A stretch of 64,000 nt of DNA from an uncultured Clostridium sp. (GTDB lineage Bacteria > Bacillota_I > Bacilli_A > RF39 > UBA660): contig CANEGO010000002.1 in assembly GCA_947427095.1 (NCBI GenBank), forward strand, positions 99,810 to 163,809, in the 5' to 3' direction. The notes below the pieces were generated by a model. The model made no database searches and was not told the origin of the DNA. It worked only from the letters and a program-made list of their open reading frames with translations. Below are positions 23,624 to 61,676 of the stretch, one piece after another; position 1 is the stretch's first letter; each line of letters starts with the position of its first letter. The translations under genes and the position numbers were made by a program.

Positions 23624-23671
23624 TAAGTATAATAATTCTTGATTATTTATTAATAATATAATAAAATATAA

Positions 23672-23750
23672 ATGCACAACGGAAATGCTAGAATCAGGTC
23701 AGGGCCGAGAGGCAGCAGCCTTAATAACCTCTTTTCGTGTGTGCTTTTTT
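23672..23750 (+). ncRNA. ffs: Signal recognition particle RNA, short 4.5S-type (ffs/scRNA)
   Basis: The domain IV core CAGGUCAGGGCCGAGAGGCAGCAGCC matches the conserved SRP RNA motif (E. coli CAGGUCAGGUCCGGAAGGAAGCAGCC). The 5' GCACA and 3' UGUGC ends can pair. A TATAAT -10 sits at 23657-62 and a U-run at the 3' end. Its position before dnaX mirrors B. subtilis scr. Confidence 0.6.
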
Positions 23751-23762
23751 AATTTAAAATAT

Positions 23763-49639: not shown

Positions 49640-49827
49640 TGTTTTAAAATATGAATAGTTATTGCCGGTAAAGCATAACTATATAGTACCAAAGACAGTA
49701 GGAGCAAAACGCATAACTATATTCCTACCGAGGACAAAAATCATAATTAGGATTTTAAGGTCTTTCATGTCTTTGATGTGAAGGCCTTTTAATTTAGGTA
49801 CTTATTACTAAAGAAGGAGGAAGAAAC
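49640..49827 (+). promoter_or_regulatory. rplJ leader (L10(L12)4 autoregulatory leader RNA region)
   Basis: A 188-nt untranslated leader in the position where Firmicutes carry the L10 leader, with structured GC-containing segments in an otherwise AT-rich context. The secondary structure was not verified. Confidence 0.45.
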
Positions 49828-55100: not shown

Positions 55101-55764
55101 TCCAGATGGTAAGACTATTTTATATAATGGTAAAACAGGAGAACCGTTTGATAATAGAGTAGCAGTTGGTGTTATGTACATGATTAAACTTGACCATATG
55201 GTTGATGATAAGTTACATGCTCGTGCAACTGGACCTTATTCGTTAGTTACACAACAACCACTTGGTGGTAAAGCACAATTTGGTGGACAAAGATTTGGTG
55301 AAATGGAAGTTTGGGCGCTTTATGCTTATGGTGCTGCTCATGTACTTCAAGAAATACTTACTGTAAAATCAGATGATGTCGTAGGTCGTGTAAAGGTTTA
55401 CGAATCAATTGTTAAGGGAAAACCAATTAATCAGGCTGGAGTTCCAGAAAGTTTCCGTGTTCTTGTTAAAGAATTCCAAGCTTTAGGTTTAAACATAGCA
55501 ATGATTACTGAAGATGGTACAGAAGTTGACGTTAAAACTCTTGAAGAAGAGGAAGAAAAAGAAGTTTCTCCATTGTCGATTGAAGAAATAGATAATGTTT
55601 CAATGGTTAATCCAAAACAAACGGTGGATGTTATTTCTGAAGAAGAGGCTATATCAGAATCAGATGAGCTTGCAAGTGAAGAAGAACAAGATGATTATGA
55701 AGCAGAAATCGAAGATGAGCTAGATGAAATGGATGATGCTTTAATGGAAGGGGATGAAGAGTAA
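52126..55764 (+). CDS. rpoB: DNA-directed RNA polymerase beta subunit (GTG start), with an acidic C-terminal tail
   Basis: 1212 aa of conserved RpoB sequence. The C-terminal roughly 70 aa are strongly acidic (..[33 protein letters not shown]..). Confidence 0.97.
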
Positions 55765-58700
55765 TGTTAGATGCAAATAGATTTGAAGGAATAAAAATAT
55801 CTATCGCTTCACCCGAACAAATTAGAGAGTGGTCATATGGAGAGGTTAAAAAACCTGAAACAATTAACTATCGTACTTTAAAACCTGAAAGAGATGGTTT
55901 GTTCTGTGAGAAAATTTTCGGACCAACTAAAGATTATGAATGTGCTTGTGGTAAGTACAAAAGATTAAGATATAAAGATATAATTTGTGATAGATGTGGT
56001 GTTGAGGTTACTAAAGCTAAAGTTCGTCGTGAGCGTATGGGTCACATCGAACTTGCAACCCCAGTATCTCATATTTGGTTCTTTAAAGGCGTTCCATCTC
56101 GTATGGGATTAGTACTTGATATGTCTCCAAGAGATTTAGAAGAAGTTTTATATTTTGTTTCTTATGTTGTTATCAATCCAGGATCAGCTCCATTAGAGAA
56201 GAAACAAACTTTATCTGATAAAGAATACCGTGCATATTATGAAAAGTATGGTAATACATTTGAAGTAGGCATGGGAGCTGAAGCTATTTTAAAATTACTT
56301 AAAGAAATTGATGTAAAGGCTGAAATAGCTGAGATTGAAAAAGAATTAGAAGATGCTACAGAACAAAAGAGAACAAGATTATTAAAGAGATTAGATATTT
56401 TAGATTCATTTGATAAATCAGGAAATAAACCTGAATGGATGATATTAACAGCACTTCCTGTTATACCTCCAGAATTAAGACCAATGATTCAATTGGATGG
56501 TGGTCGTTTTGCAACTAGTGATTTAAATGATTTATATAGGCGTGTTATTAACCGTAATAATCGTTTGAAGAAATTATTAGAATTAAACGCTCCATCTATC
56601 ATTGTTCAAAATGAAAAACGTATGCTTCAAGAAGCAGTTGATGCTTTATTTGATAACGGAAGACGTGGTAGAAATGTTACTGGTCCATCAAATAGACCAT
56701 TAAAATCAATTTCTTCTATGTTAAAAGGTAAGCAGGGACGTTTCCGTCAAAACTTACTTGGTAAACGTGTTGACTACTCAGGACGTAGCGTTATCGCGGT
56801 TGGCCCAACACTTAAGATGTACCAATGTGGTATACCAAAAGAAATGGCTCTTGAGTTATTTAAGCCTCACGTTATTCATGGTTTAGTAGAAAGGGATATT
56901 GTTCATAATATTAAATCTGCTAAAAAATTAATAGAAAATCAAGATGAAAGGGTATGGGACGTTGTTGAAGATGTTATTAAAGAGCATCCAGTAATGTTAA
57001 ACCGTGCACCAACACTTCACAGGTTAGGAATTCAAGCGTTTGAGCCGAAGCTTGTTAGTGGTAAAGCAATTAGGCTTCACCCACTTGTTTGTACGGCTTT
57101 TAACGCTGACTTTGATGGTGACCAAATGGCTGTTCACGTTCCACTTTCTGAAGCAGCTCAAGCAGAAGCTAGAATATTAATGCTTGGTGCTAATAACATC
57201 CTTTCACCAAAGGATGGAAAACCTATCGTTACTCCATCGCAAGATATGGTTCTAGGTAATTATTACATAACCATGGAAAAAGCTGGTATTGAAGGTGAAG
57301 GAAGGGTATTTAGAAACTCAAATGAGGCGATTGAAGCTTATGAAAGAAGAGAGTTAACTCTTCACGCTAGAATAGCCTTACCAGCTAAATCATTAAAATA
57401 CAAAATGTTTACTGAAGAGCAAAGAGAAATGTATTTGGTAACAACTGTTGGTAAACTTATATTTAATGAAGTGTTACCGGATGGATTCCAATATATAAAC
57501 GAACCTACGGATGAGAATTTTGAAAGTTTAACTCCAATGAAGTTCTTCTTACCTCGTGGAACAAATATTCCAGAAGCAATAAAGAGTATGCCTTTGGTAA
57601 AACCGTTCCCTCAGGGAGCTTTAAAGAGTATCATTGCCCAAATATTTAAACGTTATAAAACTACTGAAACTTCGGTAATGCTAGACCGTTTAAAAGATTT
57701 AGGATTTAAATATTCAACTCTTGCAGGTATTTCAATATCTATCGCTGATGTTGAAACAAGTGAAAAGAAACATGAAATAGTTGAAGAATCACAAAAGATA
57801 GTTGATACAATTAATAAGCAATATAGACGTGGTTTAATAACTGATAGAGAACGTTATGAAAAGGTTTGTGAAATTTGGAATAAGGCAACAAGCGAAGTAG
57901 AAAAGGAATTAAAAGCTAAAGTAGAGGCTCCATCTGATAATCCTATTATGATGATGATGAACTCTAAAGCGCGTGGTAACTTATCTCAATTTAGACAGCT
58001 AGCTGGTATGATAGGATTAAAAGCAAAACCTAATGGTGAAGCGGTTGAAATTCCAGTTACATCTTCATTTATAGATGGTTTATCTGTATCAGAATTCTTC
58101 CTATCTACTCATGGAACTCGTAAAGGTAATGCCGATACAGCACTTAAAACAGCAGACTCTGGTTACTTAACTAGACGTTTAGTTGATGTTGTACAAGATG
58201 TTATCGTAAGAGAAGAAGACTGCGGAACTATTCAAGGTGTTTTAGTTAAAGCTTTCATTGACGAGAATGCTGGAACGGTAATTGAAAGTTTACATGAACG
58301 TATAGTTGGTCGTTATACTAATAAAAAGGTTGTTAATCCTGAAACTAAGGAATTAATAATTGATAAAAATGAGTTAATAACCGAACCAATTGCGGATAAG
58401 ATAGATAAAGCTGGTATTAAGGAAGTTGAAATAAGAACAGCTTTAACATGTAAAACTGAAAACGGAGTATGTAAACATTGTTATGGTAATAACTTAGCTA
58501 CTGGTAACGTAGTTGAAATTGGTGAAGCAGTAGGTATTATGGCTGCACAATCAATTGGTGAACCAGGTACTCAGCTTACCATGAGAACGTTCCATACCGG
58601 AGGTGTTGCATCAGGTGAGGATATAACTCAAGGTTTACCTCGTGTACAAGAGTTATTTGAGGCTAGAATACCTAAAGCAAAATCTACTATTGCTGAAATA

Positions 58701-59396
58701 AATGGTAAGATAACTAAAATAGATGATCTTAACGGAAAATATAAAATAGAAATTACTAATGATGTTGAAGCAAGGGAACATACAACTAACTATGGTGTTA
58801 AACTTTGTGTTCAAGTAGGAGATGAAGTTAAGGCTGGAGATAAACTTAACATAGGTTCTATAAATCCTAAAGAGTTACTTGCGGTAACGGATCCTATTAC
58901 TGCTCAAAATTATATTTTGGCAGAAGTACAAAAAGTTTATAAATCTCAAGGTGTTGATGTTTCTGATAAACATATTGAAATCCTTGCTCGTCGTATGATT
59001 GCAAGAATTAAGATTGTAGATGGTGGAGATACTACACTTGTATCTGGTAAGTTAGTTTCAATGCATGAGTTTACTAGAATTAACAAAGAAGCTATTATAG
59101 AAGGTAAGAAACCAGCTACTGGTAGACCTATAATGCTTGGTATTACTAAGGCGTCATTAGAAACTGATTCATTCTTATCAGCTGCATCATTCCAAGAAAC
59201 TACTAGAATCCTAACGGATGCTGCTATTAAGGGTAAAGTAGACAATTTGACTGGATTAAAAGAAAATGTTATCATTGGTAAATTAATTCCAGCGGGTACG
59301 GGTTCTAAGTTTTACTCTAATGTTAAATATCAGTTAGAAAGTGAAATGGTTGAAGATGATGCGCTAGACGTATTAGAAGATCAATTAACAGATTAA
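55764..59396 (+). CDS. rpoC: DNA-directed RNA polymerase beta' subunit
   Basis: 1210 aa with a zinc-binding CxxC pair, NADFDGD, and the trigger loop. The start overlaps the rpoB stop by 1 nt. Confidence 0.97.
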
Positions 59397-59425
59397 GAAA
59401 GTCTTTGACTTTCTTTCTTTTTTTT
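59397..59425 (+). terminator. Terminator after rpoC
   Basis: GAAAGTC-TTT-GACTTTC hairpin plus a T-rich run. Confidence 0.65.
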
Positions 59426-59452
59426 GTTATTCTTTAACTAAGGGATGATTAT

Positions 59453-59869
59453 ATGAGCGACAAAAAAATTTTAACTATTGTTGGGTCTGGAGATCAAATG
59501 ATGAATGCTTTAATGCAGACTGTTGGTAATAAGGGATTGGACATAGATAAAGATTATTTAATTAGGGAATACATAGAAAAACCAATGACAAAAGAAGAGT
59601 TTATAAAGGGACTTATTTCTAAGGAAGCCTTTGTACACTATATATATGGTAATGTTTCTATAATAGGTTATGATTCAGATAAAGATGAATTAACTGTATT
59701 TATCAATAAGACATCTAATACCATTACATGTAAAATAGGTGATTTAAGAACTATGTCTAAGTATAAAAAATATGAAAGTGTACTTAATTCATTAGCTGAT
59801 GGCAATAAAGAAAAAAATGCGTTCAATTATTTTGAGGATGTAGTTATACCAGAAGCACAGAAAAAATAA
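59453..59869 (+). CDS. Hypothetical cytoplasmic protein (138 aa), no recognisable motif
   Basis: Clean ORF with a weak AAGGGA RBS and an imperfect hairpin plus T-run downstream (59895-59935). It sits where rpsL/rpsG/fusA follow rpoC in Bacillus. Confidence 0.4.
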   Translation: MSDKKILTIVGSGDQMMNALMQTVGNKGLDIDKDYLIREYIEKPMTKEEFIKGLISKEAFVHYIYGNVSIIGYDSDKDELTVFINKTSNTITCKIGDLRTMSKYKKYESVLNSLADGNKEKNAFNYFEDVVIPEAQKK

Positions 59870-59974
59870 ATAAAATTAGTAATTATATATTTAAGATGGT
59901 TATTTTTAACCTTCTTTTTTTATTTTTTTTTAGAATTTTAGGGGAATTTCAAAAGTTTTATCTAATTATAATAT

Positions 59975-59986
59975 GAGAGTACCTAA
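59975..59986. repeat. Left 12-bp inverted repeat GAGAGTACCTAA at the predicted 5' end of the small-ORF transcript
   Basis: Exact inverse match to 60195-60206. Nearby imperfect matches extend it to about 25 bp. Confidence 0.8.
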
Positions 59987-60039
59987 AATGGGTAGTAGCC
60001 TTCCGTCTTTTTATGAAGAATAGAAAGGTGTTGATGTTT

Positions 60040-60165
60040 ATGAAAAGTGAAACAAAGTTTCAAAGAGTAATAATTATCCTTTTGATTTTATTATTAGCAT
60101 TGCTGATTTTTAAAATACAAAAGAAAAAGCGTACTTACCCAGGGGGTGTACGCTTTTTTCATTAA
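60040..60165 (+). CDS. Small hydrophobic peptide (41 aa), type-I-toxin-like
   Basis: MKSETKFQRVIIILLILLLALLIFKIQKKKRTYPGGVRFFH has a polar N-terminus, one TM helix and a basic C-tail. AGAAAGGTG RBS, a TATAAT -10 at 59967-72, and a 3' end inside a bidirectional terminator. It is absent from the ORF track because it is below 60 aa. Confidence 0.4.
   Translation: MKSETKFQRVIIILLILLLALLIFKIQKKKRTYPGGVRFFH
60124..60159. terminator. Bidirectional rho-independent terminator
   Basis: AAAAAGCGTAC-TTACCCAGGGGGT-GTACGCTTTTTT: GC-rich stem flanked by an A-run and a T-run. Confidence 0.7.
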
Positions 60166-60194
60166 AGTGTTAATGGAAAGTTACTAACCTTAAG

Positions 60195-60206
60195 TTAGGT
60201 ACTCTC
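60195..60206. repeat. Right 12-bp inverted repeat TTAGGTACTCTC at the predicted 5' end of a minus-strand antisense transcript
   Basis: Exact reverse complement of 59975-59986. Confidence 0.8.
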
Positions 60207-60215
60207 GCTAATTAA

Positions 60216-60244
60216 ATTATACAGTATTAATACTATTAAGTAAA
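60216..60244 (-). promoter_or_regulatory. Predicted sigma-A promoter on the minus strand, driving an approximately 85-nt antisense RNA that ends at the shared terminator
   Basis: On the minus strand: TTTACT, a 17-nt spacer, then the extended -10 CTGTATAAT. The predicted start lies just upstream of GAGAGUACCUAA. Confidence 0.5.
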
Positions 60245-60332
60245 TAAAAAATTATTTTAAAACTTGACATAATCTTAGATAAGATATGGTATTTTTTTGC
60301 TTTTATGATACAATATACGTTAAGGTGATTTT

Positions 60333-61676
60333 ATGGATTCCGTTAATGAATTTTTAAAAACTTTAAATATAAATAAGAATGATACATTAATTGTTGCTGT
60401 GTCTTTTGGGCCAGATTCTATGGCATTATTAAATATTATAAAAAGAGTGTATCCTAATAATAAAATAGTTTGTGCTCATGTACATCATAATCATAGAAAA
60501 GAAAGTGATATAGAATGTGACGAGTTGAGAAAATATTGTGTTAAAAGCAAGATAGATTTTGAATTTATGAAAATAGAATCTTATAAAAATGATATGTTTA
60601 CCGAAGAGGAAGCAAGAAGTAAAAGATATTCTTTCTTTGATTCTTTGATAAAAAAATATGGCTCTAATTATTTATTTACGGCACACCATGGTGATGATTT
60701 AGTTGAAACCGTATTGATGAGAATAATAAGGGGTTCTTCGCTTAAAGGATATGCTGGAATACCACTTATTAGTAAACGAAAAAGTTATAATCTTATTAGG
60801 CCATTTCTTTTTGTTACCAAAGATGATATATTAAGTTATTGTAATGAAAATAATATTTCTTATGCTGTGGATAAGTCCAATTCGGATGACTCATATACAA
60901 GAAATAGGTATAGAAAATACGTATTACCATGTCTTAAACAAGAAAATCCATTAGTTCACAAACAGTTTTTAAAGTTTTCCACAGTATTAAATGAATATGA
61001 TAATTACTTTGAGAAAGTTATTGATAAGTTATATCCTAGTGTTATAACTCAAAATGAAATAAACGTAAGTGAACTTTTAAAACAGGATGATTTGATTATA
61101 AAAAGATTGATTATGAGGTATTTATACGATAATTATAAAGAAGAAATTACTTACGTAGAAAGTGATAACATCGATTTAGTCCTTTCTCTTGTTAAAAGTA
61201 AAAAAACATGTAGTGAAATTTCTTTACCTAGAAAAAAAACGTTAATAAAGTCTTATAATAAGATATATTTCGATAATGGTTTTAAATATAATGATTATTG
61301 TTTTGTGTTTGATGGTTATGAAAAGTTGCCTAATGATTTTATAATTAATAAGATTGGTAATCTAGAAAATACCACTAATTACGTTACTGCTTTTAATAGT
61401 CAGGATATTAGTTTTCCACTATACATAAGAAACGTTATTAATGGTGACAAAATCGAGGTTCTAGGACTTAATGGTTCAAAAAAAGTACATGATATTTTTA
61501 TTACGGAAAAGATTCCTAAACGATTTAGAGAAGTATATCCATTATTAGTAGATAGTGAAGGTAAAATACTTTGGATACCTGGTGTTAAAAAATCTAAATA
61601 TGATAAGTCAAAACAAGGGAAATATGATATAATATTAAAGTATTACAAGGAGGAAAAAAATGACAGGACAAAATAG
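60333..61676 (+). CDS. tilS: tRNA(Ile)-lysidine synthetase TilS
   Basis: PP-loop (VAVSFGPDSMAL) and a C-terminal TilS substrate-binding domain; 447 aa. Confidence 0.85.
   Translation: MDSVNEFLKTLNINKNDTLIVAVSFGPDSMALLNIIKRVYPNNKIVCAHVHHNHRKESDIECDELRKYCVKSKIDFEFMKIESYKNDMFTEEEARSKRYSFFDSLIKKYGSNYLFTAHHGDDLVETVLMRIIRGSSLKGYAGIPLISKRKSYNLIRPFLFVTKDDILSYCNENNISYAVDKSNSDDSYTRNRYRKYVLPCLKQENPLVHKQFLKFSTVLNEYDNYFEKVIDKLYPSVITQNEINVSELLKQDDLIIKRLIMRYLYDNYKEEITYVESDNIDLVLSLVKSKKTCSEISLPRKKTLIKSYNKIYFDNGFKYNDYCFVFDGYEKLPNDFIINKIGNLENTTNYVTAFNSQDISFPLYIRNVINGDKIEVLGLNGSKKVHDIFITEKIPKRFREVYPLLVDSEGKILWIPGVKKSKYDKSKQGKYDIILKYYKEEKNDRTK

Follow-up and report, generated by a model that had tools for sequence, protein, structure and literature searches.

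The 64,000-nucleotide stretch analysed here (the window), part of contig CANEGO010000002.1 of an uncultured Clostridium sp., carries in the interval between rpoC and tilS a conserved unit of about 310 bp (positions 59936-60246, delimited by homology among its copies), which we consider, with moderate confidence and from sequence comparison, to be a multicopy type I toxin-antitoxin (TA)-like pair of uncultured low-GC mouse-gut Bacilli. The original prediction for this region had listed a peptide open reading frame (ORF) with a ribosome-binding site (RBS) and a -10 element, a terminator, an antisense promoter and a 12-nt repeat; inspection of the sequence, translation and a promoter scan found every one of them where it had been placed, and their joint recurrence in 11 further copies shows that they are not there by chance. 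The TA reading has been strengthened because the module is multicopy and dispersed, its ORF is under selection, the antisense promoter is kept in 11 of 11 aligned copies, and the RNA structures covary. According to the proposed mechanism, a weak promoter consisting of a -10 element only would drive transcription of an mRNA of about 185 nt that encodes a peptide of 26 residues and has its Shine-Dalgarno (SD) sequence locked in a local hairpin, and a near-consensus promoter on the opposite strand would yield a three-stem-loop antisense RNA of about 90 nt. The two RNAs would converge on one bidirectional terminator, and their perfect complementarity of about 47 nt would be limited to the 3' ends; by analogy with the 3'-overlap systems of Bacillus subtilis, pairing of these ends would most plausibly lead to cleavage of the duplex and degradation of the peptide mRNA. 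The anatomy and its conservation, the coding selection on the ORF and the covariation of the RNA structures are observed, and from them we infer that both RNAs are transcribed, that the peptide is toxic and that the antisense RNA neutralises it.

The original prediction had suggested looking for the peptide elsewhere, and both the module and the peptide do recur: 12 copies, including that of the window, were recovered from about seven different intergenic sites. Eleven copies, the window's among them, were aligned, and a diverged twelfth (L021) stands outside this alignment. Searching 5.8 billion proteins with the peptide returned a single match, P0001, on metagenome contigs of the Joint Genome Institute (JGI), where it follows nusB, a HAD hydrolase gene and a 130-aa ORF, and where DNA homology spans approximately 59938-60246. 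A 20-mer of the terminator hairpin found eight loci in a collection of species-representative genomes, four in the metagenome-assembled genome (MAG) MGBC118889, two in MGBC119771 and two on other contigs, and each of them has 77-94% identity to the window along about 300 nt. MGBC118889, described as 'uncultured Bacilli bacterium' from the mouse gut, thus holds at least four copies within one MAG, and further copies came from metagenomes of JGI and the European Nucleotide Archive. A further, diverged member, P0002 on L021 (peptide MKQEMKFLKVVVILLILLLVILIFKI), emerged when 1.8 billion representative proteins were searched exhaustively with HMMER; it was retrieved independently of the hairpin and has a diverged terminator stem. 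The two other contigs among the eight hairpin loci (L014 and L019; 26-27% GC) were binned as Muribaculaceae MAGs; they carry the Bacilli-type element beside Bacilli-like genes and were probably mis-binned into Bacteroidota. The copies lie among housekeeping genes, between rpoC and tilS (in three genomes), uvrC and a GH25 gene, gltX and a uvrD-like helicase gene, an ABC transporter (ABC2) gene and a dnaB-like (DnaB_2) gene, and rpsP-KH and the next gene, as well as after a 130-aa ORF that is followed by various genes. nhmmer, run with a family profile over the window and all loci, detected a single copy within the 64 kb; blastn and tblastn found no module match in phage and plasmid collections; scans of viral contigs with hairpin, right-arm and RBS/start patterns gave nothing, or three chance 17-mer matches within phage coding genes; and the JGI metagenome_contigs collection, which evidently does not contain these samples, returned nothing for the hairpin 20-mer and a 23-mer of the right arm of the inverted repeat described below.

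The existence of paralogous copies excludes the simplest alternative, to which we assign practically no probability, namely that the region is only the end of the rpoC operon with a terminator, an ORF that arose by accident and promoter-like hexamers that AT-rich DNA contains by chance. The genome has a GC content of 29%, and TATAAT-like strings are indeed frequent in it (14 promoter-like hits versus 8.9 expected in 1.2 kb); nevertheless, a unit of about 310 bp that keeps its ORF, promoters and structures at 77-94% identity in many unrelated loci is not what such a composition yields, and rpoC has a terminator of its own (59395-59415), separated from the module by a 138-aa ORF.

The peptide turned out to be different from the one initially proposed. 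The window ORF (60040-60165 on the forward strand, its longest form starting at 60013) translates into the 41-aa MKSETKFQRVIIILLILLLALLIFKIQKKKRTYPGGVRFFH and reads through the terminator hairpin, and its transmembrane helix with a KKKR-rich tail had been taken for the architecture of Fst, TxpA or BsrG toxins. However, no other copy has the tail (QKKKRTYPGGVRFFH). A TAA codon directly follows ...LLIFKI in 10 of the 11 aligned copies and in L021, and the window alone carries CAA in its place (60118-60120), so both the tail and the length of 41 residues are artefacts of a lost stop codon. The product of the family is a peptide of 26 residues (consensus MKKETKFLKVIIILLILLIALLIFKI), encoded in the window by the 26 codons MKSETKFQRVIIILLILLLALLIFKI, which together with the family stop position occupy 60040-60120 on the forward strand; a short basic or polar N-terminus precedes a hydrophobic Ile/Leu helix. 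The RBS (GAAAGGTG, 60023-60030, with the SD sequence GAAAGG at 60023-60028) lies 5' of the ATG. Three contigs from independent Logan assemblies (L022-L024) match the window base for base, CAA at 60118-60120 included, and all end at the same base, position 60148, within the hairpin, as expected of an assembly break at a dispersed repeat. In the window copy the next in-frame stop, TAA at 60163-60165, is located at or beyond the likely 3' end of the mRNA. Since the lost stop sends translation into the terminator and towards this end, the window copy may be attenuated, giving either a non-stop message or a 41-aa variant, with its antisense half intact.

A pattern in which the hairpin is kept and the ORF is not, which would have pointed to a mere terminator region, was looked for and was not observed. 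L021 and 9 of the 11 aligned copies have an unbroken frame, which always comprises 26 codons except in the window. The ratio of nonsynonymous to synonymous polymorphism (pN/pS) is about 0.4 for the whole set and 0 for the most closely related pairs; all four Ala codons (GCA, GCC, GCG and GCT) occur at position 20, Lys and Arg interchange, even by AAG to CGT, and the helix accepts only swaps among Ile, Leu, Met and Val. Judged by these substitutions, the ORF is under purifying selection at the coding level. The peptide is contained in only two protein clusters among the 5.8 and 1.8 billion proteins searched, both of which owe their existence to in-frame upstream extensions, and it is almost invisible to gene callers and effectively unannotated.

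Coding selection, promoters and RNA structures demonstrate a peptide gene with an antisense RNA and not toxicity, and many bacterial one-helix peptides of 20-30 residues are not toxic. The family might consequently be one of harmless small membrane proteins, regulated in cis by antisense RNA and duplicated without any TA behaviour, an explanation that we regard as unlikely, although not negligible. It does not readily account for at least four near-identical paralogues per genome, for presence and absence that vary among strains, for a cassette that appears to have been exchanged between species (see below), or for an SD sequence held in a hairpin opposite a far stronger antisense promoter, which point to expression that is kept off. 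Nor does it account for the way in which copies decay. One copy has a nonsense codon at position 4 (L014, 767-1078), another has suffered a frameshift and has lost the in-frame ATG and a part of the terminator (L018, 2807-3126), and an ortholog (L015, 3545-3858, minus strand) has an intact frame and a lost SD sequence (GAAAGG to AAAAAC); despite these lesions on the peptide side, all three have kept the antisense half, an observation in favour of the type I reading.

The promoter of that half (60216-60244 on the minus strand) was the best site of the promoter scan with a score of 10/12: the -35 hexamer TTTACT (60244-60239) is separated by a 17-nt spacer ending in TG from the -10 hexamer TATAAT (60221-60216). 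The near-consensus site first noticed in the window is present in 11 of the 11 aligned copies, each with a -35-like hexamer (TTTACA, TTTACT, TTGAAT or TTGTAT), exactly 17 nt ending in TG, and TATAAT; in the decayed L018 the -10 reads TACAAT. The sequences of the spacers are unrelated between copies, and such conservation of the elements around a variable spacer is a pattern characteristic of functional promoters. The sense -10 (TATAAT, 59967-59972, forward strand) occupies the same column in all copies as TATAAT, TATAAG, TATAAA, TAGAAT or ATTAAT, with variable neighbouring bases. A strong antisense and a weak sense promoter would be as expected for an antitoxin and a toxin, respectively. About 18 nt 5' of the sense -10, all copies keep a box TTTTAGGGGAATTT (59936-59949, forward strand), which is perfect even in the most diverged L021 and does not constitute a sigma-70 -35 at 16-18 nt; it might be an operator, a regulator site or a site of an alternative sigma factor. 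The box loosely resembles the -35 of sigma-H (AGGAWWT), and the SpoIVB-like gene carried by L007 points to a spore-former. A mini-ORF reading from this box was considered and discarded: it occurs in only about 8 of the 12 copies, is variable in length and sequence, and lies 3' of a terminator without a promoter.

The two predicted transcripts meet in a bidirectional intrinsic terminator (60124-60159) that is kept in all copies; its perfect 11-bp stem (AAAAAGCGTAC/GTACGCTTTTT, 60124-60134 with 60148-60158) is flanked by A/T tracts on both sides. The G-run of its loop (the column of 60142-60146) varies from five to seven G among copies, altering the size of the loop. The placement of the -10 and the terminator predicts a sense RNA spanning 59978-60162 (about 185 nt), and the folds predict an antisense RNA spanning 60118-60210 on the minus strand (about 90 nt, stem-loop 1, stem-loop 2 and terminator), with the ends of both being estimates. 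The convergent arrangement around a shared bidirectional terminator, as originally proposed, is upheld by the comparative data. The proposed overlap with the last 40 nt or so of the ORF is not, as in the family the antisense RNA covers the terminator and the 3' untranslated region (3'UTR) instead. Perfect complementarity amounts to about 47 nt (60118-60164; a 47-bp duplex in the cofold).

The region 59970-60212 folds far better than its shuffled versions (z = -9.7 for the plus and -7.5 for the minus strand). In the alignment 94.8% of the cells pair, and controls with slid positions drop to 42-58%; 12 pairs are changed on both sides versus 5.0 ± 1.7 in shuffled alignments, and none of the 500 shuffles matched the observed values. 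Two helices stand out. The first is the hairpin that sequesters the SD sequence (60004-60014 with 60020-60030, forward strand; helix 4 of the covariation analysis), in which 5 of the 11 pairs are changed on both sides and which appears in the minimum free energy folds of nearly all copies. The second is stem-loop 2 of the antisense RNA (CATTA/TAATG, 60160-60164 with 60171-60175, minus strand; helix 10), 100% paired, with 3 of its 5 pairs changed on both sides (AU:7, GC:2, UA:2 and similar) around a hypervariable loop of identity 0.55. This helix lies 3' of the terminator on the plus strand and yet inside the predicted minus-strand RNA. Folds of the minus-strand RNA have the succession of stem-loop 1, stem-loop 2 and terminator in common, and some G.U pairs exist on this strand only; those of stem-loop 1 are of this kind, and this stem also shows one C-G to U-A swap. 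Covariation thus supports an antisense RNA of three stem-loops. Conservation peaks in the part of the ORF that encodes the helix (0.92-0.96) and in 60173-60221 (0.94-0.98), comprising the right arm of the inverted repeat and the antisense -10; the latter is the most conserved part of the unit that is unaffected by the way the copies were ascertained. Conservation of the left arm is lower (0.69-0.81).

The 12-nt repeat noticed originally is a perfect inverted repeat (GAGAGTACCTAA, 59975-59986 and 60195-60206; such a 12-mer is expected 0.25 times in the window). Its interpretation as a leader shared by both transcripts had to be modified: the 12 nt are a part of imperfect arms of about 30 nt, the left one (IR-L) at 59975-60004 in the 5' stem-loop region of the sense RNA and the right one (IR-R) at 60176-60206 on the minus strand, in stem-loop 1 of the antisense RNA. 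The arms give the two RNAs a homologous 5' stem-loop and not complementarity, so that sense and antisense do not pair through them, and each arm can fold on itself. When IR-L and IR-R do pair with each other, as in the fold of the full-length plus strand, they do so more stably in plus-strand than in minus-strand RNA in 10 of the 11 copies, with a mean difference of about 6 kcal/mol; there are 27 G.U cells versus 6 A.C cells, and one column shows C-G, U-A and G.U. Because this pairing favours plus-strand RNA, a fraction of the sense transcripts may extend beyond the hairpin and form a 5'-3' helix similar to that of hok or aapA1. The GC stem of the terminator follows the family stop codon at a distance of 8-9 nt, and a terminating ribosome could therefore interfere with termination.

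These observations permit a bolder interpretation, which we find unlikely, in which the inverted repeat is central to a mode of regulation that has not been described for type I systems. Termination would be suppressed by a ribosome that ends translation 8-9 nt ahead of the stem, the read-through mRNA would run over the antisense promoter, and it would close a 5'-3' helix of about 30 bp that could be a substrate of RNase III or a lock. Alternatively, the antisense RNA would mimic the 5'UTR of the toxin as a decoy for a shared protein or RNase, beyond its base-pairing.

The same stop position and plus-strand bias, along with the orientation of the ORF, keep a cis-regulatory role as a minor rival: an Ile/Leu-rich leader peptide whose ribosome position would control read-through into the downstream gene, here tilS. 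The ORF has the orientation of the upstream gene at each of the about seven independent loci and that of the downstream gene in 10 of the 11 copies, the downstream gene of L018 and L020 begins at or within the right edge of the element, read-through is implied by the arms, and there is a weak resemblance to the Rfam Phe_leader below threshold. We nevertheless consider a leader highly improbable. The element is missing from conspecific strains whose TilS is identical, the downstream genes are mutually unrelated, and tilS has promoter-like sites of its own 3' of the module. Furthermore, the consensus fold contains no antiterminator competing with the hairpin, a sequestered SD sequence is the opposite of what a leader peptide needs, and a conserved strong antisense promoter with a structured antisense RNA would have no role. 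A permissive Rfam search of 59300-60500 brought no family to its threshold (best score 25 bits versus a gathering value of 90), and the weak Phe_leader, SR6 and ctRNA matches were dismissed as noise driven by the terminator. The long closing stem had suggested a structured non-coding RNA such as 6S or the signal recognition particle (SRP) RNA; this was likewise rejected, as Rfam gave no match and the ORF and promoters are conserved, and no tRNA or tmRNA was detected in the region.

Inverted arms in a multicopy, intergenic and strain-variable element also recall mobile repeats of the miniature inverted-repeat transposable element (MITE) or repetitive extragenic palindromic (REP) type, whose functional ends, or whose DNA or RNA hairpin, the arms of about 30 nt would represent, with the ORF and promoters being incidental. 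The arms are imperfect with one compensatory column, assemblies break inside the element, and paralogous copies recombine: L007 (4949-5265) and L009 (645-961) are identical in the left flank and in the left half of the element, diverge from the middle of the ORF onward and continue into different genes on the right, encoding a methyltransferase and an engB-like protein, respectively, which suggests a genome rearrangement through recombination between paralogues. However, homology extends about 40 nt past each arm to both promoters, so the arms are not termini; neither boundary shows a target-site duplication and the outer ends are not inverted repeats; the searches of phage and plasmid collections yielded no copy; and substitutions at the level of codons, a conserved ATG, SD and stop, and a promoter with a variable spacer are unexpected of a passive repeat. 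A mobile repeat is accordingly improbable in our view, slightly less so than a leader.

Returning to the type I TA reading, several observations weigh against it. The inverted repeat has no role in the proposed mechanism, and its plus-strand-biased pairing hints at read-through transcripts. Complementarity of sense and antisense is confined to the terminator, and energies of duplexes between the 5' domain of the antisense RNA and the 5'UTR/SD of the sense RNA are within about one standard deviation of those of shuffled sequences, for which reason trans pairing of the par or SprA1AS kind was abandoned as not exceeding shuffles. No -35 of the sigma-70 type is recognisable at 16-18 nt from the sense -10, and the sense promoter is absent from the list of the promoter scan. 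Even with a cut-off of E <= 10, the peptide has no match among the toxin models of Pfam and NCBIfam, and the Fst/Ldr signature (Trp, PXXXG and a charged C-terminus) is absent from its consensus. A selfish module would not obviously need an ORF co-directional with the flanking genes. Finally, 8 of the 12 copies were retrieved by the hairpin 20-mer, so that conservation of the left half of the hairpin follows from the way in which they were found.

The surroundings of the module were analysed as well. The gene order, confirmed by Pfam, is rpoB, rpoC (55764-59396), a 138-aa ORF, the module, tilS (60333-61676) and ftsH. The original prediction had placed the module between rpoC and tilS, overlooking the 138-aa ORF (59453-59869, forward strand), an unannotated ORFan directly 3' of rpoC. 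This ORF forms a single cluster among the 5.8 billion proteins, and its DNA is 97-98% identical between two species. ORFs of 138, 131 and 130 aa situated 5' of different copies have no mutual homology, and the small ORFs upstream of copies, including that of 138 aa and its 131-aa alternative, belong to no Pfam, NCBIfam, PHROG or PADLOC family. Just 5' of the module, a terminator-like hairpin with a T-run can be read from the sequence (59893-59929, forward strand); every copy has a hairpin and T-run in this column, homologous in four of them (TTAGAAA..TCTAATTTTTTT), and we take it for a putative insulator. The ORFan and the module together make up a cassette reaching from the rpoC terminator to the tilS promoter (59432-60280), as delimited by comparison of contigs. 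In conspecific contigs (L001-L006; rpoC 98.4% and tilS 99.5% identical), the cassette is replaced by an unrelated 131-aa ORF, and in MGBC118889, a third species, the module alone occupies the slot. In MGBC119771, the cassette is 91-98% identical to that of the window and the flanking rpoC and tilS only 55-90%, from which it appears to have been exchanged recently between species. These comparisons indicate that the slot between rpoC and tilS is a site of variable cassettes. In the whole window, only two RNAs pass the Rfam gathering thresholds: a ribosomal protein L10 leader (49671-49801, 66 bits) and a small bacterial SRP RNA (23666-23757, 52 bits).

If the TA reading is true, the module represents a new family of type I TA peptide and RNA in a lineage of uncultured low-GC gut Bacilli without annotated ones. 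The 12 natural variants, among which are a lost stop, a lost SD, a nonsense codon and a frameshift, make testing of the system part by part straightforward, and the inverted layout of the repeats, which differs from the direct repeats of par/Fst, raises a specific question of mechanism. As dispersed repeats, the copies break assemblies and mark recombination and exchange of cassettes between species beside core genes such as rpoC and tilS.

Comparison with known systems places the module near several of them. Fold-back keeps full-length hok and aapA1 mRNAs inert. Should the sense RNA of the module read through the terminator, it would resemble those of hok/sok and aapA1/IsoA1, as its arms would form a helix of about 30 bp with -36 to -44 kcal/mol in most copies; however, the module has a strong terminator between the arms, the helix does not cover the SD sequence, and the antisense RNA is found at the 3' and not the 5' end. 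In size and layout, the peptide resembles the short type I toxins of E. coli, namely ShoB (26 aa) and Ibs (18-19 aa), in which a few polar or charged N-terminal residues are followed by an uninterrupted hydrophobic stretch. These belong to Gammaproteobacteria, are controlled by divergent or trans-acting antitoxin small RNAs (OhsC and Sib) and share no sequence similarity with the peptide.

The par locus (fst/RNA II) of Enterococcus faecalis pAD1 and the chromosomal Fst/Ldr relatives resemble the module in overall design. Convergent promoters, a bidirectional terminator and a 5' stem-loop sequestering the SD sequence are described for par/Fst (PMC7472228), and the module has the same convergent promoters, shared terminator with pairing stem-loops and SD-sequestering hairpin; as in par and its relatives, the extreme 5' end is structured, the peptide is small and hydrophobic, and several copies occur on chromosomes of Firmicutes. 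In par, however, direct repeats (DRa/DRb) make RNA I and RNA II complementary over the SD and start codon, whereas the repeats of the module are inverted and give both RNAs the same 5' sequence, and the peptide has a polarity opposite to that of Fst, with a charged N-terminus and a hydrophobic C-terminus. Since both the direct repeats and the Fst signature fail, the module was not filed under par/Fst.

In its likely mode of action, the module is most like the 3'-overlap systems of B. subtilis (txpA/RatA, bsrG/SR4, bsrE/SR5 and yonT/SR6), with which it shares no sequence. Their antisense RNAs of about 100 nt have complementarity to the toxin mRNA only at its 3' end or in its 3'UTR, and such systems act mainly by RNase III-mediated decay of that mRNA (PMC5848175). 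Their toxins are longer (38-59 aa) and unrelated to the module peptide in sequence, and the overlaps, of about 65-120 nt, exceed that of the module and are not restricted to a shared terminator; most of these systems reside on prophages, each is present in a single copy, inverted repeats have not been described for them, and the Rfam model SR6_antitoxin scores at chance level in the module region (17.2 bits versus a gathering value of 55). What the module has in common with type I systems in general was found in silico: a hydrophobic ORF of fewer than 60 codons with a predicted membrane helix under selection, and a predicted small RNA complementary to its transcript. With these features and its unusual layout of inverted repeats, we propose the module as a candidate for a new family of type I TA systems.

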